Counted from the first letter of the stretch, positions 15,475 to 52,259 are shown. The stretch: 64,000 nucleotides of DNA from a virus (IMGVR_UViG_3300027708_000013); one strand, 5' to 3'. Notes: generated from the sequence alone by a model not told the origin. Program-made: numbers and translations.

Positions 15475-16995
15475 CTAGTAGATACTGATGGGATCCACTA
15501 TGACCAACTGTCCGTTGGCACGTCTTCTAATATTTTCAATCTGACCCAAATCCAAATTATAACCTTTGGGTCCAACTAGACCCTCAATGATCGCTTCGGT
15601 GGCATATATTAGGCCATCCAATTCTTGTTCGCTGATGCCGGAGGGTCTTGGTTTATTCATCATGAACGCATTTACCCCCAGCTGACCGCGTGCCATGGCT
15701 GTCATTAAATCCTCAATGTACTCTAGAGTAGCTTCTTCACTGGCCACATACTCCAAATACTCTGTTTCGTACACAAAATAAGTTTCTTCGCCCAGCTGAA
15801 AATCTCCTGAATTGTATATTCGTGGATAATGTGGGTTGCGTTGATTGCGTTGAAAAAACTCCACATAGTCACGCACAGCTTGTTCTCTATCACCATCACC
15901 CACACCCAGCACCTTGACTATGGTGTTTCTTGGACTTTTGAAAACTATTTGATCCCGCCCTTCACCCACGTACTTGTAGCCTTTTGAAAAGAAATAATCC
16001 TGTATTCTTTCGCTCACTTCAAGTTCATCTGCATCGTTGACTTCTTTTACTAATTCTTTTTTCTGTTGTTCCCAGATATTTTTACTTGGTTTATGTTTGT
16101 TCCAAAACCCAGCACCAGCCGCAGTTTGTGAAGGATTACGGCGTATTTTATATCCTTGATTTTTCATATAGTCATACATGGTGGCAGCAATGCCTTGACC
16201 ACGACAGCGATCATCAACTTCTAAATCTTCTGGTGTAAGATATTCGCCATCAAATGAAAACAGCACATGTCCCAGTTCTTGACCGTCGCTTCTAGCAATA
16301 ACATATATGAGTGGTTCATCATCCGGGTCAGCTATATAACCTTCAATATCATCTTGTGTTTCAATTGAAATATCTATGCCGTTGTAGTGTACAGTTTTGG
16401 CCTCTGCAACAGATTCTCTCGCAAATTCTCTGGCTCTGCCTTCTGGATCCACATGCCAAGCATAGAATCTTGTGTCGGGATATTCCTGCTTCAATTCCAT
16501 AAAACTGTTCAAGTTGGGCACAGCATCATCATACATGATGGCCTTGGTGTAACTACCTTGATCTAATAAATCACGTATGATCTTCTTTTTCTTTTCTTCT
16601 GTGGTAGCACCCTGCATGTTGCCGGCACGGTACACATGCACACGACTCATGTCAACACCGTACTTGCGGAACGTGTCTAAAAATAATTCTTTATCATCAA
16701 AGTCAGCTCTGGCCGTCACCATCACAACTCGGTTGCCTGTGGCAATATCGTGCTTGAGTTGATTCATCATGGGAATAATTGGACGCGATTTTTCAAAGAA
16801 TTCTTGTGCGTTTCTAAAGTCCGCAAAGTCAAATTCCTCGCCAGGCTGGAGTCGGTACAGTGTAAAGTCATGACTGTTTAAACTTTTAACTACAGCACCA
16901 TTGCGAATCACATGCACTTGAGTTTGCGTGTGCACCAAGGTGTCGTCTATGTCAAAGACAACTAATTTACTTGGTTGTATTTCATCAGCTCTCAC
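15475..16995 (-). CDS. Tri-domain protein: HAD phosphatase + GNAT acetyltransferase + protein-kinase-like domain
   Basis: VVFDIDDTL/YDD (HAD); LEVDDRCRGQGIA..MY (GNAT motif A); VGEGRDQIVF..VKVL, YPRIY, LDL..ENI...LVIVDP (kinase-like). Confidence 0.7.
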   Translation of the reverse strand: MRADEIQPSKLVVFDIDDTLVHTQTQVHVIRNGAVVKSLNSHDFTLYRLQPGEEFDFADFRNAQEFFEKSRPIIPMMNQLKHDIATGNRVVMVTARADFDDKELFLDTFRKYGVDMSRVHVYRAGNMQGATTEEKKKKIIRDLLDQGSYTKAIMYDDAVPNLNSFMELKQEYPDTRFYAWHVDPEGRAREFARESVAEAKTVHYNGIDISIETQDDIEGYIADPDDEPLIYVIARSDGQELGHVLFSFDGEYLTPEDLEVDDRCRGQGIAATMYDYMKNQGYKIRRNPSQTAAGAGFWNKHKPSKNIWEQQKKELVKEVNDADELEVSERIQDYFFSKGYKYVGEGRDQIVFKSPRNTIVKVLGVGDGDREQAVRDYVEFFQRNQRNPHYPRIYNSGDFQLGEETYFVYETEYLEYVASEEATLEYIEDLMTAMARGQLGVNAFMMNKPRPSGISEQELDGLIYATEAIIEGLVGPKGYNLDLGQIENIRRRANGQLVIVDPISIY

Positions 16996-18242: not shown

Positions 18243-19622
18243 TCAGCAGTTCCAACGTCGACGTGCTTTACAAATGGCCTTGTCCGGAGTCTTGGCACAC
18301 GAAATATTATGCATCTTCATTTGTCCTCGGCTTCTTGAACAGTAGCTTTTTCTACGCTTTGACGCTTTACTACCACGCTTTAGCTTTGACGGCTTGGTGG
18401 TTACAGCAGTTTTTAATTTTGAACCTGGATGTTCTCTACGATAGGCATTGACAGCTTTTTGACTCATACCTGAAGTGTGATCCCGTTTATTGACCTTTTG
18501 CCAATCTTCTGTGATGGTTTGCTGTGTAACTGCAAACACATACAGTTCGTCATCTGTTAATGATTCTAGGTCTTCCCATATCACTTCGGCATCTACACTG
18601 TTGTGATCAGCCAATCCTTCAATGATGCTTTCAACTAAATCAAACTCTTCGTCCAATTCATCATCATCTTCAGGACCTTCGGTATTCCGTATGTCATTGG
18701 AAATATCCATCATGCTTGCATCCGACATCCTGGACTGGGTCACAGCCCAATCCAACAGCTCTTGGAATTCTGTTTTGTCGGTCAGGATGGCCGGTTCCAA
18801 GGTTTTCAGCTGAGCTATCAGTTGCGGATAACTAGCCAGGGTCTTGATGGCAGTAGCTCTATCCATTTGCCAAGCCTTGATGGTCATGGCCGCACGATAG
18901 GCTGCACGACCCACTGGATCATCATCCAGCTCGCCGTCGTCCCAGTTGTGATCTTCGGGAGGTGCAAATTCCTTTAAGTTGTCTTCCGATACCCCTTGAT
19001 TTTCGTGATCGTTGATCAAATCATGTGCCTGTTGAACAAAAGGCCGATATCTATCTGTCATCTTGTAAGCAAAGTATTTCACTTTTCCATTGAGAAAAAT
19101 ATCACCTTCGAGTATGCCTCGAGCTGAATTGACCATGCAGTCACCCATTTGCTCGCCATCCTCATCGATCACATCAAAATGGTAGTTATAACTGCGTTTG
19201 CCATGGTTCTCAGCTTGTATCCCAGCCGAAACAAGAACCAATTGTGGCATATAGTCCTCGCCAGAGTCTCTGTTAGGAGAAAATTCGTTGAGTCGGTCTT
19301 CTTCAGTGACACTTTCATTGGGCACACATTTACGAACTTGTCCACCGTTCTTGCCCCGCTTGGTTCCTTCGGCATGATGATTTGGCCAGCAACGGGTAAA
19401 ACCGTTGGCGTCTTTTTGACCTTTGGCAATTTCATTGATGTTGCCGTGTGTTTCACACCGACCGCAGTCCGGGCAAGTCATTTCCATCACTTCATGACTT
19501 TCATTATGCTTGCGTTTACCAGCACAGTGAGCCCGTTGACTAAAACCTTTGGGATGACTGCAATTAATACTGTTTTTGTATTTTTGACTCCACTTTTCTG
19601 TTAGTATTTCATTGATTCTCAT
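18243..19622 (-). CDS. Modular protein (leader MRINEILTE) with several small Cys-containing basic modules
   Basis: ATG 19622 overlaps the Dps stop; modules KWSQKYKNSINC, CPDCGRC, CWPNHH..CVP, RRKSYCSRS..RRRWNC; acidic spacers. Confidence 0.7.
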   Translation of the reverse strand: MRINEILTEKWSQKYKNSINCSHPKGFSQRAHCAGKRKHNESHEVMEMTCPDCGRCETHGNINEIAKGQKDANGFTRCWPNHHAEGTKRGKNGGQVRKCVPNESVTEEDRLNEFSPNRDSGEDYMPQLVLVSAGIQAENHGKRSYNYHFDVIDEDGEQMGDCMVNSARGILEGDIFLNGKVKYFAYKMTDRYRPFVQQAHDLINDHENQGVSEDNLKEFAPPEDHNWDDGELDDDPVGRAAYRAAMTIKAWQMDRATAIKTLASYPQLIAQLKTLEPAILTDKTEFQELLDWAVTQSRMSDASMMDISNDIRNTEGPEDDDELDEEFDLVESIIEGLADHNSVDAEVIWEDLESLTDDELYVFAVTQQTITEDWQKVNKRDHTSGMSQKAVNAYRREHPGSKLKTAVTTKPSKLKRGSKASKRRKSYCSRSRGQMKMHNISCAKTPDKAICKARRRWNC

Positions 19623-20056
19623 TTTAATGTACTCCTTAACATCCATGCGTGTTTTCTAAAGGCATCCATTCTTTCAGCAAGAAAATTGCTGAAGCCGTGT
19701 TCACCTGCGGCTTCAGCTTGGTCGTAAACAATCTTTAATATTTTAAACATTTTATCTGCATCGTTCAATAGTTCCGCCACCATCTTCTCTGCCACCCACA
19801 CTGCACTTTCATCTTCAATGCGGGTCAGCATGGCGAATCTACTGTTTGACCCCGGAGCATAAGCACCCAAACTTCGTATTTTCTCAGCGAATTCATCCAC
19901 AGCACCATACACTTCGGTGTAGATGGTTTCAAATAAACTATGTAGTTCTTGAAAGTGTATACCTTCCACGTTCCAGTGGAAGTAGTGACTTTTCAAATAA
20001 AAAGTATAGTGACTGGCAAAGGCTATCTTTGCTGCTTGTGTTAGTTCATCGTTCAT
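19619..20056 (-). CDS. dps: Dps/ferritin-like DNA-protection protein
   Basis: HYFHWNVEG..F..LH..FE.IY, DEFAEKIRSLG, KHAWMLRS. Confidence 0.9.
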   Translation of the reverse strand: MNDELTQAAKIAFASHYTFYLKSHYFHWNVEGIHFQELHSLFETIYTEVYGAVDEFAEKIRSLGAYAPGSNSRFAMLTRIEDESAVWVAEKMVAELLNDADKMFKILKIVYDQAEAAGEHGFSNFLAERMDAFRKHAWMLRSTLK

Positions 20057-23000
20057 AGTATCTCGTATCCTGCTCGTTTAAGTTGTTGTAGGTAATTTTC
20101 CATGATGTCAAGTTCGTCATCGTCATCTTCTACCGGTATCAGCTGATCAAATGTGGCTGACCATCCGCGACCTTGTTTGTCACCGATCCAGCAACGACCA
20201 CGTTCTTGGTCACAGTGACTCACTGTGAATATCTCATCTGGGCGATCTGCGTACTCTGGTGTGAGTTTGACCTGCATGCCGTTGCGGAATGATTGCGAGC
20301 CTTCCTTCATTAAAGCACTACCACCATGATGCTTTTCGATATCTTGTTCTTTGCTGCTGATAGAATAATCCATAACACCGACAATCTTATCTACTGCCTG
20401 AGCAATTTCGCTTTGAACCCAGTCTGGCAAATCTTCATTGCTACCAATGGCATTGTCTAAATGGGTTATTACTCTTTTCATGGTGTGTAATTGATTTTTA
20501 ACAAAATCGCCCTCGCCTTGACTATGATTGTCAGCATCAACATTTTTTAATTGTGTATCATTGACATTGCCGTTGTATTCCGTTACACCGTGTATGGGGC
20601 TGATGCTGTCCACTGCCACTGGCATGTTGCTATCCTCAGATGCAACTCCAGTCACTGGCTTCAATGTAGCAGCCAACACTTTGAAAAGTTTGCCGGTCCA
20701 ATCTCGGATGACAACCTTTCCGCCCTCAATGCCCTGCACTGTGCAGGGTCGATTTGAAATACCCTCGTGCCGTACCTGTTTGCCCTTGGCTAACCAGCTT
20801 GGAACTGCTGATTCCGCCACACCTTGTTGGTCCAGACCATCTACGCTTTGCCACGCATGAGCAAATGCTTGATTCAGTGCTTGAGTAATTCCTGGATATT
20901 TTGATTCCCAGTTAAACTCGTCCAAACTTTTTTGATTCATAAGAATATTATAGATACCTTTAGCACCAGTATCCGCCACATCAATGATCCAGTCCGATGC
21001 TTGCCAATTCTTTGATAAGTTTTTAGCAACAAAACGAATTTGTTGAACTGCTTCCTTGGCTTCTTGATCGGCTTGTTCTTTTGAATATCCCAATTGAGAA
21101 ACATTTTCTTTTCGAGTGCGAAGAATATTGTTACGCAGTAAGGTAGCAAAACGCTGGGCCATCTGTTCTACTTTTGTTTGAACTTCTGGAGATAAAGTTC
21201 CTCTGCCTTCCGCCACACCCGGCTCGCCTGTGATGGCCTGTAACATGGCACGGGCAACCACACGATCTTTTTCTTTTTCATCTTCTGGCAATTGAGCATA
21301 GTTCTGTGTTACCAGTCGTTGACGCTGTGCCAATTTGGCTTGTAATTTTTCCGGAGCCATTGTTTTGCTATCATCAAATATCATTGGATTTTGTATAAAT
21401 GCCTGTGCAGTGACATTCCACCCTCTATGGATGGCATCACTGATCTTTTCAATGTCAGTCTCACCCGAGTCAATCATCTTTTTAGCATAAGCAGCTGATT
21501 TCAAGTTGGCCTGCCATCCAAATGTGTTACCTGGTGTGCTACGACCATAATGATAAGCCGCGTCTAGGGCCTCATCACTGATGGTGGCCAACTGTTCTAC
21601 ACTCAATGGTTTTCCAGCGGCTTCGGCCAGGCCACTGTGTACACGGGTCTTCAGTTGTTCCAGCACTTCATAGGCGGCTGTTAGATCCTGTTGTGCTTTG
21701 GCACGACCCTGATCGGTTTTCAGTATTTTTGTTTTTTTGTATAATTCACGGATTTGCGACTGCACTTTTTTGATTTCACCCATGGTGGCTGTTTCTGGAT
21801 GTTGAAACAGATCCTTGAACGCCTGTGCCAATGCGACGCCATAGACTGCTAGTCCGGATCCAATCACAACGCCAATGCCGGAGAGGTGATTGAGATTTTC
21901 GGGTTTCAAAGGACTATAGGGATTCATGGGACTAAAGGGACTCATGGGATTCAAAGGATTGGTGCTCCAAGAGCTTTCATTGGTGGTGCTGTGTGTGGAG
22001 CCTTCTGTCACACCCGGCTTTTTAGTCATGTACCGGTCAGCATCTGCGGCTCTGCACTGTGCTGGATCTAAAGGATCAAACTTTGCATTTCCAATTGTAA
22101 AATTCTTGCCGTATTTCTTATAAAGACTATTTGCAAGATTTTCTCTGGCTCGACTGGCTGTTGACAGAGAGGGAAATACTTTCCAGTAGATGTTATCGCC
22201 ACCTTGAGTTTTCCTCCACCAAACCACTTGCGGAGTATTTTCTATTGGGCCATTACGATCAACATAGCCTTCCGCCACAACTTGGAATTTACTTTGTATC
22301 TCTTGTAATGCTTGAGCCAACAGTTCGGTTGGTGCCCGGCTGAGTAATTGTGATATATCGTTATGGAACTGACGGTATAACTGACCCCAAGTTGGGCAAC
22401 TATACGCCATTGCATGAGCACGATTACTACTGCCTTCTTGATCTAGAGAGCGAACGTATTTCCAAAGTTCACGTCTAATCGTGTCACGATCGGTTGGAGC
22501 AACTAATTCTCTACGTGCATCTCTAGACAACGGAGCAGTTTCCTCCACACCCGACCGTTGTTTAACCTGCTGTCGTTGTTTTAATTTTAATTTAGTCTGT
22601 GGATCTAATGCCCATCCTGGCTTGTGCCCGGTTGGTTGACTTGTTGAAGCTTTGTGATTTTTCTCCCAAGCAGATCGCATTAGATCCCCTTCGGCCACAT
22701 CCTTCTTGTTGATGTCATCAGTGCCGTGTTCAACGCCGCCGCCAAACAGTTCATGCCAAACCATTGTAAGCACTGGTGCATAGGCTCTAGAGCCGGGCAC
22801 AGTGTTTAATATTTGGTATATGGGTGCCAACCTATTCCAATAATCGGTATAGTTTTCGCTGTAGTCCAACACCGAATGCCAACTGTCTTCTCCGTCTGCT
22901 GGATTTCCATCCTCATCTTCGTCATTACCGGCAAAGGCTCTAGGTCCTATGCGTTTCCACAGTTGCATCATCTCCTGGTATGCACCTCCATCACTGCCAT

Positions 23001-24252
23001 AGAAATGTCCACCGGGATATCCATTGGGGAACATGTCGGGAAACATGCCAACAATCTTGTCAGCTGATTGGCTTTTTTCTTGATATTGGGGGAATTGACG
23101 AATTATGTCAGCCCACTGTTTGGCTATGGTTTGAAATTTTCCACTGGATACCAGTTTACTCAACATGGTGTCAAATTTCAAATCACCAGTGACTTCACCT
23201 AAATTATCTTTGCCATGTACACGATTCAATGCACGATCAACACCTTTTTTGCGTTGCGGACCTTTTGGTCCAAAGGTTTTCTCTATCTTGCCATACATGT
23301 CGCGTTGTACGCCACCCAGCTTTTCGGCTTGTTTTTTGGTCACATCCAATAGATATTGCTCGGCTTTTTCTATTGAGGTTTCCGTTACATCTCGCACAGC
23401 AACACCGTAGCGACGCAACAGGTTCCTGCCATCACTCACTCTAAATGCACCTTTTACATAAGGTCCCACTCGCTTGATGGCTTTTTGTTCTATATGGGGT
23501 AGATGCATTTCAGCCTGTTCGGGGGTGTTGTATTCACCGTATATCACTGCTGCACCGTCCCAGGCCCATACATAATATAATCCGGGGTCAACTGGGTACT
23601 CTCTACCTTGAATGGTTTCAATTGCTTCCGCCACACCATCTTCTTTCATTTTATCCAGCTCGTGTTGTGGAATTCCTTTTTTTCTGAGATAAAAGTCTCT
23701 AGCTCGTTTACCAACCTCAGGGGTATAATTGAATAGCACACTGGCTGGGGTCAATGGTGGAGGATGTCCATGGGCTTTGATATATGCTTTACGTTCTGCT
23801 TTTTCTTCTGGACTTCTCGCATCATGACGCCCGCTTTCCTCCACACCTTTGCTCATAGTAGGACCTGTTGTAGGTAGTTCTTCAAACTCAGCGTATGCAT
23901 CAAATACATCCTTATAGCCTTGTTGCTGGGCTAGTTTGTCAAAGTAATTATATGATACTCGGTATTTCTGCATTAGTGGTTTTAATGCATCTGTTGGGTC
24001 AATGTCTGGATAGCCCTGTGTTAGTGCAGAAATAACTTCTGGCCAGCTTGGACCACCGGAGCCTTCCTCCACACCCGAGCCAACGGGACTGGCCACATTG
24101 TCTGAATCCTGTGTGGCCGCCACACCGTTCAAGCCAGCTGAGGTGAATAGATCCGTGTCTTCGGCAAACTCGTGTATGATTTCAATTCGAGATTCGCTAA
24201 CCGTGGGTTTGCTTGGTTTTTTGTTGCTGTCAAATAAGTCGTATATGTTCAT
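20053..24252 (-). CDS. 1399-aa GVxE-linked cassette polyprotein (includes RyR-like, SH3-like and helical modules)
   Basis: Eight G-V-x-E linkers plus DVAE/VVAE/GLAE/DVTE variants; YAQLPEDEKEKDRVVAR resembles the RyR repeat. Confidence 0.75.
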   Translation of the reverse strand: MNIYDLFDSNKKPSKPTVSESRIEIIHEFAEDTDLFTSAGLNGVAATQDSDNVASPVGSGVEEGSGGPSWPEVISALTQGYPDIDPTDALKPLMQKYRVSYNYFDKLAQQQGYKDVFDAYAEFEELPTTGPTMSKGVEESGRHDARSPEEKAERKAYIKAHGHPPPLTPASVLFNYTPEVGKRARDFYLRKKGIPQHELDKMKEDGVAEAIETIQGREYPVDPGLYYVWAWDGAAVIYGEYNTPEQAEMHLPHIEQKAIKRVGPYVKGAFRVSDGRNLLRRYGVAVRDVTETSIEKAEQYLLDVTKKQAEKLGGVQRDMYGKIEKTFGPKGPQRKKGVDRALNRVHGKDNLGEVTGDLKFDTMLSKLVSSGKFQTIAKQWADIIRQFPQYQEKSQSADKIVGMFPDMFPNGYPGGHFYGSDGGAYQEMMQLWKRIGPRAFAGNDEDEDGNPADGEDSWHSVLDYSENYTDYWNRLAPIYQILNTVPGSRAYAPVLTMVWHELFGGGVEHGTDDINKKDVAEGDLMRSAWEKNHKASTSQPTGHKPGWALDPQTKLKLKQRQQVKQRSGVEETAPLSRDARRELVAPTDRDTIRRELWKYVRSLDQEGSSNRAHAMAYSCPTWGQLYRQFHNDISQLLSRAPTELLAQALQEIQSKFQVVAEGYVDRNGPIENTPQVVWWRKTQGGDNIYWKVFPSLSTASRARENLANSLYKKYGKNFTIGNAKFDPLDPAQCRAADADRYMTKKPGVTEGSTHSTTNESSWSTNPLNPMSPFSPMNPYSPLKPENLNHLSGIGVVIGSGLAVYGVALAQAFKDLFQHPETATMGEIKKVQSQIRELYKKTKILKTDQGRAKAQQDLTAAYEVLEQLKTRVHSGLAEAAGKPLSVEQLATISDEALDAAYHYGRSTPGNTFGWQANLKSAAYAKKMIDSGETDIEKISDAIHRGWNVTAQAFIQNPMIFDDSKTMAPEKLQAKLAQRQRLVTQNYAQLPEDEKEKDRVVARAMLQAITGEPGVAEGRGTLSPEVQTKVEQMAQRFATLLRNNILRTRKENVSQLGYSKEQADQEAKEAVQQIRFVAKNLSKNWQASDWIIDVADTGAKGIYNILMNQKSLDEFNWESKYPGITQALNQAFAHAWQSVDGLDQQGVAESAVPSWLAKGKQVRHEGISNRPCTVQGIEGGKVVIRDWTGKLFKVLAATLKPVTGVASEDSNMPVAVDSISPIHGVTEYNGNVNDTQLKNVDADNHSQGEGDFVKNQLHTMKRVITHLDNAIGSNEDLPDWVQSEIAQAVDKIVGVMDYSISSKEQDIEKHHGGSALMKEGSQSFRNGMQVKLTPEYADRPDEIFTVSHCDQERGRCWIGDKQGRGWSATFDQLIPVEDDDDELDIMENYLQQLKRAGYEIL

Positions 24253-24941
24253 CGTGTAGTTCCTGCTGAAGGTGGTGTTGTGGCAGAGGGTGCTGGTGTT
24301 GTGCTAGTTCCAGGCTGTGCGGGTTGACCGGCAGTAGCCGAGGCAGTGCCAGCTGTGGGAGTTTGTCCCATGGACTTTTGAGCCTGTTGTACCTGTTTGT
24401 TTTTTTGTAATTCTGTTTGTTGTGTTTTATCCAACAATGCTTTGAACTGACTGGCAGTTTGTGGATTCTGTAACATGTTGCTGGCAGCCACAGCCAATGG
24501 GCCCAGCTGATTTTGTTCTTGATTGCTGAGGTCAGTGCTGGGAGCCTGATCTAATTTATCCATTACCGCAGTGAACTTGGCAGGATTCATCTGCTGAGCA
24601 GCACCCAGCTGATTTAACTTTGGTTTGATTTGATTCACTGATTTTTGTATCTGTGATTGATCTGTTTTCTGTTGAAGGGCCGCTGGATCGGGTTTTTGTG
24701 CAGTGGAGCCCGGGGCGGTTTGAGCGGCAGCTCCATATCCGCCCACGCCACCGTATTCAGTAACGTAGGAGTAATACTCCTGCATTAGCTCACGGGCAGT
24801 TTGTTTCACCTGCGGACGACTTTTTAATTCAGCTTGTAATTCTCGCAGTACACTTTCAGTGACAAGGGTTGATGGTTGATCCAACGGCGTTGCGGTGTCA
24901 GCAATGGTGTCCATACGATGGATTAATGTACGTAGATTCAT
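24249..24941 (-). CDS. Low-complexity Q/A/T/P-rich protein in the cargo operon
   Basis: Coupled ORF; LVTE/YVTE sites; disordered-looking tail. Confidence 0.7.
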   Translation of the reverse strand: MNLRTLIHRMDTIADTATPLDQPSTLVTESVLRELQAELKSRPQVKQTARELMQEYYSYVTEYGGVGGYGAAAQTAPGSTAQKPDPAALQQKTDQSQIQKSVNQIKPKLNQLGAAQQMNPAKFTAVMDKLDQAPSTDLSNQEQNQLGPLAVAASNMLQNPQTASQFKALLDKTQQTELQKNKQVQQAQKSMGQTPTAGTASATAGQPAQPGTSTTPAPSATTPPSAGTTR

Positions 24942-27670
24942 CAGCGTTTGATCATACTTTCTTTTTTCACTGACTTCTTACGAAAAGGACTGCTGGGGTT
25001 CTTGTAAGTACCACCAAACAGTGTACCGGTTCCGGGTCCTGAGCCTGGAGTGATTGCTGTGCTGATTGAACTGGAAAAAGTTTCGGCTATACGATCTAGA
25101 TCTTGATCCAGGGTGGGTAATTCTTTTGTTTTCTTAAGAGCTTGTCCGGTTAAGTTGTGTACTTTGCCTTGAGGATTTTTCTTAGGATTGGTTGGTTTCC
25201 ATGGGCCTTCGTCTCGCCAACTGGTGACATTTCCATCTTTATCTTTTGTTTCAGTTCTGTCTTCCGACACACCCGGCTTCTTGACACCCAGGTTGGCTGC
25301 TGGATTGCCGCCACCAAACATGCTGTCAAAAGCATCTTTAGATTGTTGTTTGGTGTCTGCTGTTCGTTGTTTGGCTACTGCTTTTTTACCAGTGATGCCT
25401 TTAAACATCTTGTCAAACTTTGGGTCGCCGGTGGCTTCCGCTACACCCGACTCTGGTAAATTAGGTTTGCGGTGTTGGCCAAGCTGACCTTTAATAGCGG
25501 CTTTAAGATCGCCTGAACGACGGGCTCTCTGCTGATCAGCAAATTCTTTTGTCTCTGGACTTGCACCGGGAGTATTCATTCCAGGAATATTCCCTAGATC
25601 GGTTTGACCTGGTCTAGGAAATTTATGTGCAGTGTTCATACCTGTGCGAGCCCTCAGTCTGTCTGGACTTGTTCCTAATGCTTCCGCCACACCTTCACCA
25701 AATCTATTTGTTGGGGATACATTGCGTGGATCAGAGAAGTCAGCACTAGGCTCAGGCATACTATATTCATGAACTTCGTGAACCCACTCCTCTGGAATAT
25801 CTAACTTACGAGCAATAGTTGCCGCTGGTACACCCTTTACCAGCAAGTCAATGATCTGTTGATCAATTTTACTTTGTGGGCCATTGCCTTCCGCCACACC
25901 CGACTTGCCAGCAGGAACAACTTCAATTTTACTAAATTTACTGTTTTTCATTCGTGCTTTGAATTTTTCTTCAGCGTCTTGCGGATTCAATGCTTTGATT
26001 GTGGCGCTGGAATAGCTTGTTCCAGACTGACCAAAATAGCCCTTGACATCATACACTTGTCCGGGCTGGGCATTGAAATCTGCCTGCATTTTTTTCAAAT
26101 TCATTACACTCTGCTTGCTGATTCCGCCGGGATTGCCGCGACGAGGTTTTTTAAGAGCGGCCTGATACGGAGTATGTATATCTTTTTGTGTATCAAAACC
26201 TTGTTTATCCAGGTAATGCAATACATCGTCGCTGACCTGGGTGTCGAGATCAAATAGTGCGGCAATACCAGCAGTCATTCCTTTGTGTAAAAAAGTTTCT
26301 CCTACTTCTTTGATCATTTCTCCGTCTTCTGCAGAAGCTTCATCATCCCACAATGTGCTGTACTGTTTGCTGAACTCAACAATAGCTGTACCATACTGTA
26401 GCGGGCCATTGTTACCTTCTCCGCCGGGTGCAAATTCGTTTAGTTTACCATTGGCTGACTTTGCATCTTTTTCTAATACACTTGCTGCATGTTGTAAAAA
26501 ATCAATTAAATCATATGCTGTTACAATCTCATAAGGTGTCATGGCACGGCCAAGATCAATGCTCCAGTCGTCCAACTCGTAACGACCTGAGGTTACAATT
26601 TTTGCATAACGCAAGATCCATTGACGTGCTTTTGCAAGATTTGGACTGGCCAAGTCGCGAGTACGATTTAGTACATCATACAACGTATCAATGTGTTGAC
26701 CTGGATCTGCTACTTCTTGATCAATTGCTGAAATTATATCTTCAAGGCCCAGAGACTGTGTATCCGCTTGTTTTTTACTAGTGATGTTGTTGAGCCAGGT
26801 GTCAAATTTTATATCGCCGGTTGCTTCCGCCACACCTTGCTTGCTACTCATTCTTTTCAACAAACTCACAGCATAAACCAAATGCTGGCCAAGTTCTTTT
26901 CGTTGATCTGTTCCTGGTTTAGCATTGCTATTTTTCTGTATACTCTTTGCTAAATTTTCGGCGGCAAGTGCTTGACGGGCCAAATCACCATTGGACCGAT
27001 TGCCAACGATTTGATTTAAAAATCCACGCTTGCGGTTGGCTTGATTTGCACCATCAATTAGTGCCTTAACAATTTTATCTATCTGTTCAGCTGTTGCTCT
27101 ATCACCCACTGTGACAAACTCATCGTGGCGTGTTTCCCAATCCAAGCCTTCCTCCACACCTTGTTCTTCATTCACAGCCCGGTGTTTCACATCCTTCAAG
27201 TGTGCATCAACACCCGCGGTGTTTTTTAATTTCCATTTGGCAGCGGCCTTTCGAGCAGCTTCATAGGAAGTTTTGGCTGTTACTTCGCACTGACCTTTTT
27301 TTGCGTGTACACAAACATAAGCACGTTCTGCATCACTCTCGCCCAACAATTCAGCAAACTTTTCTTCAGCTTCGGCAATGTTGAACACTGTCATGCCACT
27401 GGCATGGGGTCTTTCGCCGCTCATGACATCGTACTCCAACCATTCGACCACAGTTTTTAAATAGTCATTGGCTAGACTGATCTTTTCAGCGGCCCAAGCA
27501 TCCAGTTCGTGCCCGTCGGGTAATTTGCCCAGTAATTGATGTAGTTTGATTGCGTTGGCAGCCGAGTGATAGCACTCTTCTCTCAGCATGTGGTGTTGTT
27601 GGCTCTTATGCATTTGATGTGCGTCATCGCCAATAAATTCGTGTTCTGTGATAAAATCTTGTGGTTTCAT
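24941..27670 (-). CDS. 909-aa GVxE-linked cassette polyprotein (leader MKPQDFITE)
   Basis: Six GVxE linkers; HTH-like module (IIDLLVKGVPAATIARKLDIPEEWV); two ATGDxKFD modules. Confidence 0.75.
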   Translation of the reverse strand: MKPQDFITEHEFIGDDAHQMHKSQQHHMLREECYHSAANAIKLHQLLGKLPDGHELDAWAAEKISLANDYLKTVVEWLEYDVMSGERPHASGMTVFNIAEAEEKFAELLGESDAERAYVCVHAKKGQCEVTAKTSYEAARKAAAKWKLKNTAGVDAHLKDVKHRAVNEEQGVEEGLDWETRHDEFVTVGDRATAEQIDKIVKALIDGANQANRKRGFLNQIVGNRSNGDLARQALAAENLAKSIQKNSNAKPGTDQRKELGQHLVYAVSLLKRMSSKQGVAEATGDIKFDTWLNNITSKKQADTQSLGLEDIISAIDQEVADPGQHIDTLYDVLNRTRDLASPNLAKARQWILRYAKIVTSGRYELDDWSIDLGRAMTPYEIVTAYDLIDFLQHAASVLEKDAKSANGKLNEFAPGGEGNNGPLQYGTAIVEFSKQYSTLWDDEASAEDGEMIKEVGETFLHKGMTAGIAALFDLDTQVSDDVLHYLDKQGFDTQKDIHTPYQAALKKPRRGNPGGISKQSVMNLKKMQADFNAQPGQVYDVKGYFGQSGTSYSSATIKALNPQDAEEKFKARMKNSKFSKIEVVPAGKSGVAEGNGPQSKIDQQIIDLLVKGVPAATIARKLDIPEEWVHEVHEYSMPEPSADFSDPRNVSPTNRFGEGVAEALGTSPDRLRARTGMNTAHKFPRPGQTDLGNIPGMNTPGASPETKEFADQQRARRSGDLKAAIKGQLGQHRKPNLPESGVAEATGDPKFDKMFKGITGKKAVAKQRTADTKQQSKDAFDSMFGGGNPAANLGVKKPGVSEDRTETKDKDGNVTSWRDEGPWKPTNPKKNPQGKVHNLTGQALKKTKELPTLDQDLDRIAETFSSSISTAITPGSGPGTGTLFGGTYKNPSSPFRKKSVKKESMIKR

Positions 27671-27690
27671 GCGTTAAACTCCAGTATATT

Positions 27691-27701
27691 ATAGTATTTA
27701 G
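27691..27701 (-). promoter_or_regulatory. T4-late-like promoter CTAAATACTAT
   Basis: Matches the core of T4 TATAAATA(ctatt); heads the coupled 27670-15475 gene chain. Confidence 0.65.
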
Positions 27702-27704
27702 CAG

Positions 27705-27983
27705 CTAGATTGTAAACGATAAATCTTGACTGCTGATGCCGGCACCGTTGACAGTAAAATTTTGTGTGCTTATACAACCTTGTGTAACACATTCCTGTAC
27801 TGTTAACTGATGTGTTCCCGGCTCAAGATCTACTTCAATATTTTCTTGAACATAAACACTGTATGCGGGCCAACGCCAAGTGCGTTCAGTGAGTAGATCA
27901 CTGTCAACATAAACTCTATACACCGGAGCACCCTCAGCAGTAGAGTTGCAATGAACATCTACAGAGAGTGCCAATAAGGTCAT
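27705..27983 (-). CDS. Small beta-rich hypothetical protein
   Basis: ATGA overlap with upstream stop; YRVYVDSDLLTERTW. Confidence 0.6.
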   Translation of the reverse strand: MTLLALSVDVHCNSTAEGAPVYRVYVDSDLLTERTWRWPAYSVYVQENIEVDLEPGTHQLTVQECVTQGCISTQNFTVNGAGISSQDLSFTI

Positions 27984-28828
27984 CGATACGTGCCTTGCCA
28001 AAGTTGCTGAATTTTACTCTTTAACTCGGCAATTTTCTTTTGATAGTGGGGTTTGGCAGCAGAATCAATGTTGCTATCGGCAATCAAGTCCTGATAGTGG
28101 TCAATGTCATCGCGATATTTTTTAATCAAGTACACAGTGGCATCCACAGTGGGATTGCTTTCTGCCACACCTTGTTGTACAGTTTCATCTAACACACTGC
28201 TTAATAATTTCAAAGCACGTTGGGGATTTTTTGGGTATAGTGTTTGTGCAATTTTTGCACGACCTGCAGGCGTGGCCTTTGCCCAAGCAGCACGTATTTC
28301 ACTGGCACTGGTGACTCCACCTGCAAATTCCACAGTGGGCAAATAGGCCATGTAGGCATGTTGAGCCAAGGGTAGAAGATTTTTGATATTAGTAAAAGAC
28401 TGCAAATAGTTGCTTACTGGTTGCCCCTTACGTGGCCCACGAGTAACCAAAGGTAATTTACCTGTTGCAGGATCAACTTTTGCTGGTTGTGGTGCTTGGT
28501 TGCGATCTTTTTCGCTACGCACAAATATCAATGCTGTAGCTGTGGGATCATAGTGATCTACAATTTCCTTTGCAGTAAAAGGACTTTTGACCTGTACAAA
28601 GTGGTCTGCTGGAACACCAGCGATGGTGGCCAATTCTTGTTTAACTGCAAAAGGTATCGGACGTTCGCTAGTATCGTTGGTAGAAGCCACATATACATCA
28701 GCTCCAGGAAATGCCCGCAGTGCGGATGTGTAAAGAGACATGTGTCCAGGAGTCCATGGATGAAATCCCCCCGGCATTATCACAAGAGTTTTTAGAGTCG
28801 TTGCTTCAAATAAATCTGCTATGAACAT
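27980..28828 (-). CDS. Cytidylyltransferase-like (HxGH) nucleotidyltransferase with leader and a C-terminal GVAE module
   Basis: VIMPGGFHPWTPGH, SASEIR; starts MFIADLFE-A; QQGVAE-S before the last helix. Confidence 0.75.
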   Translation of the reverse strand: MFIADLFEATTLKTLVIMPGGFHPWTPGHMSLYTSALRAFPGADVYVASTNDTSERPIPFAVKQELATIAGVPADHFVQVKSPFTAKEIVDHYDPTATALIFVRSEKDRNQAPQPAKVDPATGKLPLVTRGPRKGQPVSNYLQSFTNIKNLLPLAQHAYMAYLPTVEFAGGVTSASEIRAAWAKATPAGRAKIAQTLYPKNPQRALKLLSSVLDETVQQGVAESNPTVDATVYLIKKYRDDIDHYQDLIADSNIDSAAKPHYQKKIAELKSKIQQLWQGTYR

Positions 28829-28849
28829 GGCAATATCCGTTTATAGCAG

Positions 28850-28856
28850 TATTTAG
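28850..28856 (-). promoter_or_regulatory. Late-type promoter CTAAATA
   Basis: CTAAATACTGC upstream of 28828. Confidence 0.55.
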
Positions 28857-28857
28857 T

Positions 28858-29334
28858 TTAAATGTTTTCTAATAGAAATATGTAAAAAGGATTGGTCCAC
28901 TGGAGCCGCCACTCACCGTTCCAGCCAAGATTCACACAGTTTTTAATTATTTTAGTAATTTCACCACTGTGTTTAACCGGTTGATCAACATGATATTCAC
29001 TTAGGTTATATATTAAATGTCCCAGATCAATCTCGTCAATTTCCACGCTGACAATATTTAACAACATATCGCCAATGATTGTAAAATTGTCAGGATCTGT
29101 ATACTGGTCTTTTTTAACATCATTGGCAGTTTTATTTTCCAATCTTATTTGCAACCGATTGAGTTCCACGTCAGAATCTAAATCAAATTCTACATAAAAA
29201 ACTTCGTCCGTGGCCGCGTCTATTAGTGAGGATTTGACCACAGCCATGTCATTGACCAAAACACTGTATTGGGGCGGCCGATCCCAATACGTGCCGCTGA
29301 GTCCAATTCGAAAGTGTAAGGTTTCTTTTTCCAT
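28858..29334 (-). CDS. Hypothetical beta-sandwich-like protein
   Basis: 158-aa ORF in operon. Confidence 0.65.
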   Translation of the reverse strand: MEKETLHFRIGLSGTYWDRPPQYSVLVNDMAVVKSSLIDAATDEVFYVEFDLDSDVELNRLQIRLENKTANDVKKDQYTDPDNFTIIGDMLLNIVSVEIDEIDLGHLIYNLSEYHVDQPVKHSGEITKIIKNCVNLGWNGEWRLQWTNPFYIFLLENI

Positions 29335-29351
29335 GTTGACCTGTTATGCTG

Positions 29352-30293
29352 TTAGTTGATTTGTGCTTGTGGTTGTCCAGCCTTGGCCATGTTGACAGCA
29401 TCTTTCAGCGCCGCCGGAACACCGGATGGCAATGTGTCGCCGGATCCTGCTGGAGCAGCACCTCTTGCTTGATTGATAACATCAATCTTGCTGAGATCAC
29501 CGGCAAATTCAAAGTGTCCAATGTGGTTAAGCAATACTTTACTGTGTACCCAAATTTCGCCACCCATGTCTTGCCATCTACGACAGAACAACCAGTCTTC
29601 ACTGAGATAGTGACCACGAGCGTCAATTTTACAATCGAAGATCGAGTACATCATGGGCTCGTATTGTTTACCAAGTCCTACATCATCCACATATTTTGTT
29701 TCTGGAAACTGTGCAATCATTTTTTCATACACTGCACGTTTGAACAACAAGAAACCTGTGCCTGTGGTGTCCACAGTGAAGATGTCACCTTGAATCTTAG
29801 TTTCAGGTTTTAAATTAATCACATAATTAACTGGTAATGCTTTTTTAGGATATAATCCACCAATGACTTCTTTGTCACAGGCAATCATTTGCAAGATTGA
29901 TTCTGGTTGGAAACGAATGTCTGCATCAATAAACATGAAATGTGTGGCAGTGGTGTTGGTCATCATTTTGGCCATCAAGTTGTTTCTGGCACGAGTCACT
30001 AGGCTTTCGTTCACCATGGTGTCCAGGCTCCAATTGAGTCCTGCTTGACCTGCCAACAACACAAAACGTAAAAAGCTGGTCATTGTGGGCTCGCTCACCA
30101 TACCACCGTAGCAAGGAATACCTATGTGCAAGTGTACTCGACTGAAGTCGTAAGGAACGCCCTGGCCTTGGTTGGCCGGAACTAGCTCAGGTGGTTTTTG
30201 TGCTTGTTGTGCTTGACGTGCGGCAGCTGCTTTGATCATGGCTACTGCATCATTTTGACTGACAGGAGTGCCAGAGGATTTTTTTGTACTCAT
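29352..30293 (-). CDS. GT-A (GT2-like) glycosyltransferase
   Basis: IGIPCYGG, RARN.L, FMFIDADI (DxD), TGFLL.KR, LSEDW.FCRRW. Confidence 0.75.
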   Translation of the reverse strand: MSTKKSSGTPVSQNDAVAMIKAAAARQAQQAQKPPELVPANQGQGVPYDFSRVHLHIGIPCYGGMVSEPTMTSFLRFVLLAGQAGLNWSLDTMVNESLVTRARNNLMAKMMTNTTATHFMFIDADIRFQPESILQMIACDKEVIGGLYPKKALPVNYVINLKPETKIQGDIFTVDTTGTGFLLFKRAVYEKMIAQFPETKYVDDVGLGKQYEPMMYSIFDCKIDARGHYLSEDWLFCRRWQDMGGEIWVHSKVLLNHIGHFEFAGDLSKIDVINQARGAAPAGSGDTLPSGVPAALKDAVNMAKAGQPQAQIN

Positions 30294-30484: not shown

Positions 30485-30513
30485 GTTGGGCTCCTTGAAT
30501 AATATGCTAGTAT

Positions 30514-31230
30514 TTAGCCAGGCGCTGACACCATGGCATGAATATTTGATATTAATGCAGGGTTTATTAGGCCAATAAACGTAACAATCGCTGGATCGTT
30601 GGTGTAAAAGAACACACCCCAAGTGCTTTCATACTGTTTATTCAGCATGTCTTTAGATGTTTTGCTTAGTTTAACTGTGTCGCCTAGATTTTCTAAATAG
30701 TGTAATAATTGTTGTTTAGTTTGAAGTGAATATCTACCATCGCGTACAATTACTTTGTGTGAGTATGCCCATGGTGTTGGTGTTACAATGGCACCGCACT
30801 GTAACAATGGCACCATTTCCGGCTGTGGGTATGTGATAGATTCTATATATTTTGGATCAATCTTCAATGCTATGGTTTTTAATGTGGCTTCATCTTGGGT
30901 ATAAAATTGTATGTTGGGTTCTTCTATACGTGTTCTAACTGAGCCAGACATGCCTGTTTTGATCTCTTGAACTGTACGCAACAGCGTTAAATCTACTAGA
31001 TCCAAGTTGGGAGATCTATAAAACCAACCAGTTTTACCAAAATTATATCCAGATTGAGCCATAGCACGTCTATGTTCCAACGCCGCTTCAAGACTTGCAA
31101 GTTTTGAATCCAACAGTCTACCGCCTTCGGCATGTATTACCAAACGCCAAAGATATCTACCGTGAAATTGCTTCACAGTGGTAGCGAGTTTGATACCCGG
31201 TTGTATTTTATTCCAGAACGATGAGTCCAT
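30514..31230 (-). CDS. Hypothetical protein
   Basis: 238-aa ORF coupled to clpA. Confidence 0.65.
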   Translation of the reverse strand: MDSSFWNKIQPGIKLATTVKQFHGRYLWRLVIHAEGGRLLDSKLASLEAALEHRRAMAQSGYNFGKTGWFYRSPNLDLVDLTLLRTVQEIKTGMSGSVRTRIEEPNIQFYTQDEATLKTIALKIDPKYIESITYPQPEMVPLLQCGAIVTPTPWAYSHKVIVRDGRYSLQTKQQLLHYLENLGDTVKLSKTSKDMLNKQYESTWGVFFYTNDPAIVTFIGLINPALISNIHAMVSAPG

Positions 31231-52191: not shown

Positions 52192-52259
52192 AGTGTCTTT
52201 TCCAAATATTATTAGTATTTAGCCTGATAGATTAGTTAGAGCTCGCAGTGATTCGTGTA

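Follow-up and report, generated by a model that had tools for sequence, protein, structure and literature searches.

A linker conserved as DNA between protein modules in polyprotein genes of an uncultured freshwater giant phage

Genes and modules at the locus

The window, i.e. the whole stretch of DNA that was analysed (64,000 nucleotides, with positions counted from its first letter), comes from an uncultured freshwater giant phage of the T4 superfamily. The locus contains the following features:

20053..24252, minus strand: 1399-aa polyprotein ORF, about 13 modules
24249..24941, minus strand: 230-aa ORF rich in Q, P and T, without canonical linkers, overlapping both polyprotein genes at its ends
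24941..27670, minus strand: 909-aa polyprotein ORF, with leader MKPQDFITE, constant N-terminal domain, about 6 cargo modules and constant C-terminal tail (GTLFGGTY...KKESMIKR)
27694..27701, minus strand: candidate T4-type late promoter CTAAATAC, 24 nt upstream of the ATG of the 909-aa ORF
27980..28828, minus strand: 282-aa ORF, with N-terminal enzyme-like domain (GGFHPWTPGHM motif), linker QQ-GVAE-S, then a conserved 59-aa tail

Since the ends of the 230-aa ORF overlap both polyprotein genes, the genes look co-transcribed. The closest relative in IMG/VR, G001, encodes homologs of all these proteins. Its polyproteins contain 932 and 525 aa as compared to 1399 and 909 aa in the window, modules of the larger protein having been gained, lost and swapped, while another homolog of the 909-aa protein (in L002) has about 155 aa and no cargo at all. 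The 230-aa protein is 82% identical to R225 of G001, and the 282-aa protein is 56% identical to R300 of the same relative, with a different linker segment. The approximately 20 modules found within the window showed no detectable paralogy to each other. The term 'in-frame cassette array', used in an earlier note on this DNA, is apt.

A Pfam search of the 1399-, 909- and 282-aa ORFs (E up to 0.01) returned no family, and the only PHROGs match of the polyproteins was a weak one (phrog_917, 'released from the phage upon host infection', E 7e-4). An ESM Atlas look-up of the 909-aa protein was uninformative, its own model having a pTM of 0.20. Near-identical DNA and tblastn searches of cultured phages left the locus and the 909-aa protein unmatched; the clade has no cultured member. 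The neighbouring ORFs encode GNAT, DUF6321, glycosyltransferase-like, DnaJ and Clp-like proteins, and no tRNA for rare codons was found within the window. The candidate promoter CTAAATAC occurs 8 times in the window (2.06 expected), others of these copies lying upstream of the 282-aa ORF (28849), of a tail-fibre-like gene (52215) and of a 1191-aa ORF (56603). The T4 late promoter proper, TATAAATA, was not enriched.

Linker copies in the three ORFs

The modules are separated by a short linker, G-V-x-E, encoded by a repeat, GGTGTGGMGGAA, of which there are ten exact and six near copies, all on the minus strand. The linkers of the window, including three degenerate ones, are as follows:

24064..24075, minus strand: linker GVEE, TCG GGT GTG GAG GAA GGC; residue 60 of the 1399-aa ORF; left parent of junction A
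23836..23847, minus strand: linker GVEE, GGT GTG GAG GAA; residue 136 of the 1399-aa ORF
23626..23637, minus strand: linker GVAE, GGT GTG GCG GAA GCA; residue 206 of the 1399-aa ORF; right parent of junction A
23380..23391, minus strand: degenerate linker DVTE, GAT GTA ACG GAA; residue 288 of the 1399-aa ORF; left parent of the hybrid DVEE at junction B
22690..22701, minus strand: degenerate linker DVAE, GAT GTG GCC GAA; residue 518 of the 1399-aa ORF
22540..22551, minus strand: linker GVEE, TCG GGT GTG GAG GAA; residue 568 of the 1399-aa ORF; right parent of junction B
22270..22281, minus strand: linker VVAE, CAA GTT GTG GCG GAA GGC; residue 658 of the 1399-aa ORF; junction C
22003..22014, minus strand: linker GVTE, CCG GGT GTG ACA GAA GGC; residue 747 of the 1399-aa ORF
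21622..21633, minus strand: degenerate linker GLAE; residue 874 of the 1399-aa ORF
21208..21219, minus strand: linker GVAE, CCG GGT GTG GCG GAA GGC; residue 1012 of the 1399-aa ORF
20812..20823, minus strand: linker GVAE, CAA GGT GTG GCG GAA; residue 1144 of the 1399-aa ORF
20578..20589, minus strand: linker GVTE, GGT GTA ACG GAA; residue 1222 of the 1399-aa ORF; precedes the shuffled 93-aa module
27149..27160, minus strand: linker GVEE, CAA GGT GTG GAG GAA GGC; residue 171 of the 909-aa ORF
26825..26836, minus strand: linker GVAE, CAA GGT GTG GCG GAA GCA; residue 279 of the 909-aa ORF
25889..25900, minus strand: linker GVAE, TCG GGT GTG GCG GAA GGC; residue 591 of the 909-aa ORF; junction D
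25682..25693, minus strand: linker GVAE, GAA GGT GTG GCG GAA GCA; residue 660 of the 909-aa ORF; junction E
25436..25447, minus strand: linker GVAE, TCG GGT GTA GCG GAA GCC; residue 742 of the 909-aa ORF
25262..25273, minus strand: linker GVSE, CCG GGT GTG TCG GAA; residue 800 of the 909-aa ORF
28160..28171, minus strand: linker GVAE, CAA GGT GTG GCA GAA; residue 220 of the 282-aa ORF

The earlier note had reported six exact copies of GGTGTGGCGGAA and four of GGTGTGGAGGAA. We found the same numbers, with low coordinates 20812, 21208, 23626, 25682, 25889 and 26825 for the former and 22540, 23836, 24064 and 27149 for the latter, while dinucleotide shuffles of the window gave an expectation of 0.02 exact matches. 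The note did not state that all ten are read on the minus strand. The one-mismatch copies that it placed at 22270, 25436 and 28160 were also recovered, together with one that it had overlooked at 25262 (GGTGTGTCGGAA, GVSE) and with two-mismatch copies at 22003 and 20578, both encoding GVTE. Likewise, the 5' extensions that it described, TCG at 22540, 24064 and 25889 and CAA at 20812, 26825, 27149 and 28160, are present, and they are shared by 25436 (TCG) and 22270 (CAA). All copies are in frame as G-V-x-E in ORFs 20053-24252, 24941-27670 and 27980-28828. Matches with up to two mismatches outside 20578-28171 were as frequent as expected by chance (7 versus 7.55).

Conservation of the linker codons

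The synonymous positions of the linker had been described as almost fixed. This was borne out, and the fixation runs against codon bias: the idea that GGT-GTG-GCG-GAA is just the modal codon choice does not hold. GCG, which elsewhere in the window represents 6.7% of the Ala codons, encodes 8 of the 9 linker alanines, and GAG (20% of Glu codons) is used at position 3 of the linker in 4 cases out of 4. Given the protein sequences, a codon-usage null predicted 0.13-0.16 exact 12-mers, as compared to 10 observed; 1000 synonymous permutations yielded at most 3, and the probability that at least 6 of 8 GVAE sites be canonical was 2e-12. An explanation by codon pairing was ruled out, GCG-GAA being found in only 2 of the 74 AE dipeptides outside linkers.

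A wider sample, drawn from 107 ORFs of IMG/VR contigs and comprising 115 additional unique GVxE sites, all different from the search seed, gave similar results. GGT was used at 89% of the sites (background 44%), GTG at 70% (18%) and GCG for 80% of Ala (7%), and a Gly following the linker was encoded by GGC in 72% (31%). Conservation was limited to about -6 to +14 around the repeat, which corresponds to a direct, non-palindromic word of about 18 nt. The consensus, (CAA/TCG/CCG) GGT GTG GCG/GAG GAA GGC, forms direct repeats of 12-19 nt. At least 120 IMG/VR contigs contained the 15-mer, but a synonymous control 15-mer likewise reached at least 120, so that the raw contig count is not evidence by itself. 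The counts that discriminated the 15-mer from its control were those of multi-copy loci (33 versus 0) and of ORFs with at least three linkers (44 versus 3). In the cultured relatives Phosso, Atu_ph07, Vibrio phage 2.275.O and 121Q, the 12-mer was not above control. Linker-like sites in adjacent multi-domain ORFs of the window (15475-16995 and 18243-19646) use other codons, indicating that the DNA form is not universal even in this phage.

Such conservation might have a cause at the level of RNA or translation, for instance a pause between domains due to rare codons or to a G-rich stretch, or a Shine-Dalgarno-like pause at GGAGG. GCG, TCG and CCG are indeed rare here, GGAGG is present in the GVEE version, and GG-TGT-GG-C-GG-AA-GG is formally a two-tetrad G-quadruplex motif. 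However, common codons (GGT, GAA, CAA) are conserved too, which argues that the sequence rather than codon rarity is kept, and AE and EE dipeptides elsewhere are devoid of such codon pairing. The third-base G persists where the fourth GG tract is missing (GAA GCA and GAA AGC contexts), and the quadruplex was predicted at only -1.4 kcal/mol, in 1 of the 16 contexts. No fold common to the 16 sites was found, and an Rfam search of 19000-29500 found no family. RNA structure, including a G-quadruplex, was thus ruled out as the main cause.

Module breakpoints between relatives

The Clp-like proteins of the window and G001 are 95% identical, with the same codon at 80% of the identical residues. About 20% of the synonymous codons differ between the window and a relative, yet at least 8 module events separate them. 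The prediction that breakpoints between relatives would coincide with the repeat proved correct, all 5 junctions examined between the window and G001 lying inside the 12-19 nt repeat. At junction B, G001 has a hybrid linker, GAT GTG GAG GAA (DVEE), with the linkers at 23380 and 22540 as parents. At junction C (22270), it carries an extra 64-aa module between two 19-nt direct repeats, and at junction E (25682) it has another downstream module, the switch occurring directly after GAA.

Natural variants were sought among assembled contigs from independent freshwater metagenomes, and there too distant linkers were found to be joined, through 7 or 14 shared letters. The joint 25893->27154, in a contig of run X4, connects the linkers at 27149 and 25889 through 7 shared nt and skips 1260 nt (141-nt side; 0-3 mismatches in the flanks). 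The joint 23621->26821 connects the linkers at 23626 and 26825 through 14 shared nt, and was found in contigs of runs X3 and X7, from two studies. Three other joints (22284->26822, 21558->26824 and 26851->27140) were left out, their sides being only 20-23 nt long. Contigs of run X4 also diverge at the 20578 linker and have the canonical GGTGTGGCGGAA there. Among the loose contig ends listed, about half were within 7 nt of a linker, versus about 5% expected. In an all-against-all comparison of about 125 loci, 17.5% of the internal homology ends were at most 5 nt from a linker, a ten-fold excess over a local control (1.7%).

One could argue that recombination is random or illegitimate and that selection merely keeps the in-frame junctions at module borders, the linker DNA being conserved for one of the RNA or translation causes considered above. 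Junctions must indeed pass selection, and linker breakpoints are in part what selection for viable proteins would leave. Such a filter would nevertheless allow many positions in the flexible flanks, whereas none of the junctions fell outside the repeat, and none added or removed a residue. We consider this combination of causes unlikely. The data strongly suggest a causal role of the repeat in the exchanges, beyond that of a marker of the places at which viable products remain.

A homing-type nuclease, or a site-specific recombinase as in a true integron-like system, might recognise the linker DNA, and a word of about 18 nt conserved across many phages has the typical length of a nuclease site; the abundance of homing endonucleases in T4-type phages (PMC2993671) also speaks for it. 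However, the crossover position differed between events, being located within GGAAG, within TGT or within the first 7 nt, the repeat has neither inverted-repeat nor attC-like structure, and integrase and resolvase families were absent from the adjoining ORFs and from 455 kb of related contigs (14-55% complete; PF00589 and PF00239). A dedicated enzyme therefore appears very unlikely.

A shuffled 93-aa module

The following module was found in many different polyprotein contexts:

20299..20577, minus strand: 93-aa helical-hairpin module (YNGNVNDT...ALMKE)

In 6 contigs, it is flanked by GVAE, GVEE, SVAE or GVTE and has different neighbours. It was located at positions 5 to 1226 of proteins of 76-1399 aa. 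In two contigs, its copies are 100% identical at the nucleotide level, and the modules on both sides differ. An AlphaFold2 model predicted a helical hairpin, with the last 8 residues, which run into the linker, at pLDDT <50; the module had neither a PDB match nor a Pfam family. The median module size in the wider family is about 80 aa, and modules in distant homologs likewise end in (L/M)-x-E.

Direct repeats within one gene often originate by duplication, and the window is a metagenomic assembly. It is nonetheless hardly credible that the identical linkers are remnants of a recent tandem duplication of a module with its linker, or an assembly artefact. The modules have no detectable similarity to one another, and the 93-aa module has diverged between contigs to 55-75% same-codon identity while its linkers are still canonical. 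Repeats of at most 19 nt are below the usual assembly k-mers, and two runs contain 94% of the sampled words of 20053-28828. A duplication origin of the linkers was ruled out, the modules not being paralogs.

Possible link with a prohead protease and capsid targeting

PF03420 (Peptidase_S77, the gp21-type prohead protease) was searched in relatives of this phage and was found there, with 97.8 bits in G001 and 90.6 bits in G002. In both, the gene adjoins scaffold-like and gp23 capsid genes. The leader of the 909-aa ORF (MKPQDFITE) and its counterparts in G001 (MKPQEFLKE) and L002 (MKPAEFLKE) resemble that of T4 IPII and IPIII (MKTYQEFIAE), although this comparison of 9-10 residues, made by eye, is weak evidence. 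Processing of the T4 leader is governed by residues 8 and 10, i.e. P3 and P1 (PMC9026906). Judged from its residues, the linker fits the hydrophobic-x-Glu cleavage rule of T4 gp21, with a hydrophobic P3 and Glu at P1; the residue that follows the 16 G/V/D-V-x-E sites is each time G, A, S, T, D or Y. The capsid protein of G001 has a probable maturation site, NLME|T, which suggests that the protease does not need G-V at P4 and P3. The uniformity of G-V in the linker peptide is left unexplained by the protease rule.

The ORFs might also be intact multidomain 'polyvalent' proteins with uncut linkers, G-V-x-E being a flexible spacer, in which case the interpretation in terms of DNA recombination would stand. 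Polyvalent phage proteins with 2-15 domains exist (PMC5512222), and some are packaged uncut, such as the N4 virion RNA polymerase. This is improbable, however, as the invariant Glu, the small next residue and the hydrophobic P3 fit the gp21 rule and are needless in a plain spacer. The leader similar to a capsid-targeting sequence (CTS), the gp21-family protease of the relatives and the (L/M)-x-E ends of modules in distant homologs also argue against it.

Proposed model

The synonymous conservation, the module turnover and the location of the breakpoints inside the repeat are all probably accounted for by capsid-targeted, protease-cut cargo polyproteins in which the linker DNA is a short homology patch for in-frame cassette exchange. 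Each polyprotein has a constant head, whose short leader ends in Glu, and a constant tail, with a variable run of modules of unrelated type in between. It would be made late and carried into the prohead, where cleavage at each G-V-x-E followed by a small residue would yield many small internal proteins. These would enter the host along with the DNA, as T4 IPI-III do, and would probably serve in counter-defence or in takeover of the host. Non-allelic linkers of one genome or of co-infecting relatives would recombine with each other, so that entire modules are deleted, duplicated, inserted or swapped, with automatic restoration of the reading frame and of the cleavage site.

The overall interpretation of the earlier note is supported, the module breakpoints coinciding with the repeat and the codons being non-modal. 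As to mechanism, of the two that it had proposed, recombination through microhomology or short homology agrees with the varying crossover positions, while for site-specific recombination no tyrosine or serine recombinase was found beside the locus or in the 455 kb of related contigs. T4 recombines at microhomologies of 6-10 bp (bioRxiv 10.1101/2022.04.14.488369), and G002 encodes a RecA/UvsX-like protein. Since 12 nt make a short patch for homologous recombination of the UvsX type, the exchanges could instead proceed by replication slippage, by single-strand annealing or by end joining.

Cassettes with canonical flanks would be mobile and those whose linkers have drifted codons immobile. If only the former move, the canonical sequence would be propagated and over-represented across the clade despite its rare codons; it would be kept since the cassettes bearing it are those that spread. 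We would tentatively go further and propose, as a possibility, that the linker has been selected for a double use, as a site for the prohead protease at the protein level and as a recombination joint at the DNA level. The polyproteins would then form an in-frame cassette-exchange system, with capsid-delivered effector modules being traded throughout a clade of freshwater giant phages.

The proteins that phages inject together with their DNA form a first line against the defences of the host, and the way in which phages renew this arsenal is an open question. In this clade, the injected cargo appears to be arranged like beads on a string, the knots being protein cut sites as well as matching DNA ends. 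If this is true, a single step is enough to lose or double a module, or to borrow one from a relative, with the frame intact, which would explain the very fast turnover. It suggests a design principle for swappable protein cargo packaged in T4-type capsids, and provides a clear natural case of identical intragenic repeats, normally a liability, being kept. The 15-18 nt word also offers a simple rule by which metagenomes can be mined for hundreds of modules, of about 80 aa each, that are candidates for counter-defence or takeover.

Comparison with known systems

Integrons also are arrays of exchangeable cassettes parted by a repeated site, but the array described here is without IntI, attI, folded attC or promoterless whole-gene cassettes, and its exchanges keep the reading frame. 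No IntI-type tyrosine recombinase was found among the neighbouring ORFs and no common hairpin of the attC type across the 16 sites, so that 'integron-like', as the array had been called, holds as an analogy only. In-frame recombination between short conserved motifs is known from the T-even tail-fibre adhesins (glycine-rich motifs of gp37 and gp38; Tetart et al. 1998, as cited in PMC3157838). There, the motifs belong to the structure of a single folded domain and homologous loops are swapped, whereas in the present case the motif is a linker and the exchanged pieces are modules that are unrelated and fold independently.

Polyvalent proteins (Iyer et al. 2017, PMC5512222) are similarly long mosaic chains of disparate domains, which have been proposed to travel with the DNA and sometimes to be released by proteolysis (PMC5512222). 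In the present case, the cut would come in trans from the prohead protease, at a uniform linker, while the description in PMC5512222, in whose text the word 'linker' is absent, has no DNA-conserved linker. In the three ORFs, Pfam detected neither embedded peptidases nor any of the domains typical of polyvalent proteins (MPTase/zincin peptidase, ParB, ArdC, methylases, helicases and others).

The T4 internal proteins IPI, IPII and IPIII, with their CTS and gp21, belong to the same superfamily and share with the present system a leader of the F-I-x-E type and the rule of a hydrophobic P3 and Glu at P1. They too are small, highly variable, unrelated cargo with a fast turnover between close relatives, and they counter host restriction (PMC3012670, PMC9026906). 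The T4 proteins are encoded by separate genes, each with a leader of its own, whereas here up to about 13 cargos, with putative cleavage and packaging, are fused in frame in a single polypeptide through linkers of the cleavage type, and the conserved DNA element is the linker, not the leader or promoter.

Finally, the PeSL cassettes of T4-type phages are variable modules bordered by short conserved DNA repeats in hyperplastic regions, with the breakpoints of indels and replacements between close relatives lying in the repeats, as we observed here. Homologous recombination between the repeats has been proposed for their shuffling (Arbiol et al. 2010, PMC2839356; Comeau et al. 2014, PMC4122927). 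PeSLs are intergenic and longer, and shuffle whole genes; their sigma-70-like promoter and terminator stem-loop have no equivalent in the present repeat, which is in frame within ORFs and without stem-loop. By contrast, the repeat described here measures 12-19 nt, lies in coding sequence, encodes a putative protease-type site and separates in-frame protein modules.

The linker repeat and its codon usage

The window contained 10 copies of the pattern GGTGTGGMGGAA, where shuffles predict 0.02; all ten were on the minus strand and matched the coordinates of the earlier note. When 1-2 mismatches were tolerated, the three one-mismatch copies of that note (22270, 25436 and 28160) were recovered together with copies at 25262, 22003 and 20578; two-mismatch matches outside 20578-28171 were present in chance number only. 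An independent repeat finder likewise found this family to dominate the direct repeats of the region. Every copy was in frame and read G-V-x-E (x being A, E, T or S). The ORFs holding these linkers were:

20053-24252, minus strand: polyprotein ORF of 1399 aa, in-frame linkers
24941-27670, minus strand: polyprotein ORF of 909 aa, in-frame linkers
27980-28828, minus strand: ORF of 282 aa, in-frame linker

The previously described 5' extensions TCG and CAA were present at linker copies. Ser and Pro at P5 were invariably encoded by the rare codons TCG and CCG, and the Gly found after the linker Glu at six sites was GGC each time. We also observed a 30-nt direct repeat (23167-23196, 25409-25438 and 26798-26827); in three modules otherwise unrelated to one another, it encodes the opening residues E-(A/V)-TGD-x-KFD. 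A further boundary element, shared but weaker, may therefore follow closely behind some linkers.

The remaining ORFs of the window used GGT, GTG, GCG, GAG and GAA for 37%, 33%, 6.7%, 20% and 80% of the respective amino acids. From the protein sequences and this usage, 0.13-0.16 exact 12-mers were expected where 10 were seen, and synonymous permutations within ORFs (n=1000) gave a maximum of 3. At the 8 GVAE sites, 6 or more canonical copies would occur by chance with a probability of 2e-12. GCG-GAA was used at only 2 of 74 Ala-Glu dipeptides outside linkers, showing that this codon pair is not preferred in general, and other codons were found at G/S-V-x-E sites in the DNA polymerase and in ORFs 15475-16995 and 18243-19646. 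Codon counts, permutations and dipeptide usage therefore indicate that modal codon choice does not explain the linker, and bear out the view that its synonymous positions are fixed beyond the needs of the protein. The two ORFs just mentioned (both minus strand) encode multi-domain proteins with Glu-ending linkers in non-canonical codons, one with a DUF6321 C-terminus, the other with a GNAT and a polynucleotide-kinase-like part.

Occurrence of the linker in IMG/VR

The 15-mer CAAGGTGTGGCGGAA was found at at least 120 IMG/VR loci. A synonymous control 15-mer made of commoner codons likewise reached at least 120, so the raw locus number means nothing. Among the matches listed, loci with 2-4 copies numbered 33 for the canonical 15-mer and 0 for the control, and loci with an ORF bearing at least three GVxE numbered 44 and 3. 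The three loci with the control word CAAGGTGTTGCAGAA (scan of loci L139-L258) that also had such ORFs may be polyproteins of related phages with another DNA form of the linker.

We surveyed the codons of 115 unique GVxE sites in ORFs of the matches listed, leaving out the search seed. At these sites, GGT accounted for 89% (background 44%), GTG for 70% (18%), GCG for 80% of Ala (7%), GGC for 72% of the next Gly (31%) and CAA for 98% of the preceding Gln (74%). Again among the matches listed, the conserved span was about 18-20 nt, the median linker-to-linker distance was 80 aa, and many contigs bearing CAAGGTGTGGCGGAA were 100-520 kb long.

Module turnover at the linker

The syntenic genes of G001, the closest relative in IMG/VR, encode 932 and 525 aa, compared with 1399 and 909 aa in the window. 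Two window modules (residues 64-209) were missing from G001 at the nucleotide level. The resulting junction A, TCG GGT GTG GAG GAA GCA, took its left flank from the window linker at residue 60 and its right flank from that at residue 206, the crossover lying within GGAAG. At junction B, G001 lacked 280 residues and had a hybrid linker, GAT GTG GAG GAA, derived from DVTE and GVEE. At junction C, it had an extra 64-aa module flanked by two 19-nt direct repeats, CAAGGTGTGGCGGAAGGCT, present as one copy in the window. At junction D, the part of the 909-aa ORF from the linker at residue 171 to that at residue 591 (420 residues) was absent from G001, and at junction E a common GGT GTG GCG GAA was followed at once by unrelated modules. 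The counterpart of the 909-aa ORF in a third contig (L002) consisted of the N-terminal domain joined to the C-terminal tail and nothing more. Head and tail are thus the constant parts, and all between is optional cargo.

The module of 93 aa at window 20299-20577 was found in six contigs, each time with different neighbours and always flanked by GVAE, GVEE, SVAE or GVTE linkers. In two contigs of one metagenome it was 100% identical in nucleotides, with different modules on both sides. In more distant contigs, only 55-75% of its identical residues had the same codon, while the linkers were still canonical. An exhaustive profile search gave 505 representative homologs, most of which ended in (L/M)-x-E; the proteins holding them were 76 to 1399 aa long, and the homologs lay at positions from 5 to 1226. 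The module had no PDB or Pfam match; modelling predicted a helical hairpin whose C-terminus is disordered. At locus L008, this shuffled module forms part of a protein of the DUF6321 type. Modules thus pass from one polyprotein gene to another.

No similarity was found among the modules of the window on comparison with each other, which rules out that the identical linkers are duplication remnants. A selection filter alone could also shape the junctions, with an RNA-level cause for linker conservation. This is unlikely: the junctions are exact, common codons are fixed as well as rare ones, and structure, a G-quadruplex or a codon-pair effect each fail to explain the pattern.

Breakpoints in independent populations

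We placed contigs of four other freshwater runs on the polyprotein locus. In one contig, 25893 was joined to 27154 (linkers at residues 591 and 171) through 7 shared letters, with 0 and 3 mismatches in the flanks. In contigs of two runs from two studies, 23621 was joined to 26821 through 14 shared letters, so that a module of the 909-aa ORF was immediately followed by one from the 1399-aa ORF. These assemblies presumably used 31-mers, a length at which joins of this kind cannot arise in the graph from repeats of 19 nt or less. Of the listed points at which foreign contigs depart from the window, about half fell within 7 nt of a linker; linkers with this margin make up about 5% of the stretch. 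When about 125 loci were compared all against all, 17.5% of the internal ends of homology were no more than 5 nt from a linker-like 12-mer, compared with 1.7% for nearby random positions. Junctions A-E, the contig joints and this enrichment therefore indicate that breakpoints coincide with the repeat, as expected if it is the module-shuffling site proposed earlier.

The phage and its neighbouring genes

The window is phage DNA, with genes for a T4-type DNA polymerase, a Clp-like ATPase, DnaJ, a Dps/ferritin-like and a tail-fibre-like protein. The giant phages Phosso, Atu_ph07, Vibrio phage 2.275.O and the 121Q group have polymerases sharing 42-50% identity with that of the window; these four relatives all lack the 12-mer, and we found no near match to the locus among cultured phages. 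The polyprotein stretch is contained in freshwater metagenomes of six studies. In G001 (154 kb), the Clp-like protein is 95% identical to that of the window, with the same codon at 80% of identical residues.

The Dps/ferritin-like gene (19619-20056, minus strand; PF00210, E 1e-20) follows immediately downstream of the 1399-aa gene, which it overlaps; this neighbourhood was also seen in G001 and at locus L049. A ClpA/B-like ATPase with two AAA+ domains (31208-33490, minus strand; phrog_4871, E 2e-241) adjoins a full DnaJ (33512-34360, minus strand; PF00226 and PF01556), a predicted chaperone or unfoldase pair located some 3 kb upstream of the polyprotein locus. In the 282-aa ORF, the first 220 residues gave no Pfam family; their GGFHPWTPGHM motif recalls HxGH nucleotidyltransferases. 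To this part, a conserved 59-aa tail is attached via a GVAE linker, and the G001 counterpart has a longer linker region, DLAE. An ORF of about 92 aa occupies 27706-27983 (minus strand), between the 282-aa and 909-aa ORFs.

The octamer CTAAATAC occurred 8 times in the window (2.06 expected), 7 times on the coding strand:

5335-5342, 11056-11063, 27694-27701, 28849-28856, 30510-30517, 52215-52222 and 56603-56610, minus strand: CTAAATAC
60422-60429, plus strand: CTAAATAC

Four of the seven coding-strand copies were 21-31 nt upstream of start codons, those of the 909-aa ORF, the 282-aa ORF, the tail-fibre-like gene and a 1191-aa ORF. T4-type late promoters have the form TATAAATA, or CTAAATA in some lineages; the T4 form was not enriched in the window. 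By likeness to these promoters, CTAAATAC is probably a late promoter of this phage clade.

Mechanism and comparison with known systems

T4 internal proteins are small, diverse, capsid-targeted, cut by the prohead protease gp21 and injected, and counter host restriction (PMC3012670, PMC9026906). A ten-residue capsid-targeting sequence brings proteins into the prohead, its residues 8 and 10 governing gp21 cutting (PMC9026906). In the T4 internal proteins IPII and IPIII this sequence is MKTYQEFIAE; the 909-aa ORF begins with MKPQDFITE. A gp21-family protease (PF03420) is encoded beside scaffold-like and gp23 capsid genes in G001 and in G002, a more distant contig that also encodes a RecA/UvsX-like protein.

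The simplest account would combine known T4 biology with the features of this locus. The cargo of this clade would be fused into polyproteins, the conserved element being the cleavage-type linker itself (a predicted site). Exchange between any pair of linkers would restore both the frame and the predicted cleavage site, and the canonical nucleotide word would persist if only cassettes bounded by it can move. The drifted linkers DVTE, DVAE, VVAE and SVVE look like fossils. It is possible that the polyproteins stay uncut, as polyvalent proteins, and the DNA-level conclusion would then be unchanged.

Of the mechanisms offered by the earlier note, homology-guided exchange is favoured over a dedicated site-specific system: crossovers occurred at different sub-positions of the repeat, and we found no integrase or resolvase in neighbouring ORFs or related contigs (incomplete genomes) and no hairpin at the repeat. 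Because the related genomes are incomplete, a dedicated nuclease acting at the linker DNA is possible, though unlikely. Homology-guided exchange has precedents: T4 amplifies or deletes segments by recombination at 6-10 bp microhomologies (bioRxiv 10.1101/2022.04.14.488369), and T4-type phages shuffle genes via recombination between short conserved PeSL cassettes (PMC2839356, PMC4122927) and adhesin segments between conserved in-frame motifs (PMC3157838).

The literature searched makes no mention of such a linker, and linkers go undiscussed in the polyvalent-protein paper (PMC5512222). The T4 capsid-targeting and gp21 system, repeat-mediated shuffling and multi-domain delivered proteins are each known singly. 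What appears to be new is their combination into an in-frame cassette array whose DNA-conserved linker has a dual use, as exchange site and predicted cleavage site, which would be of considerable interest to phage biologists.
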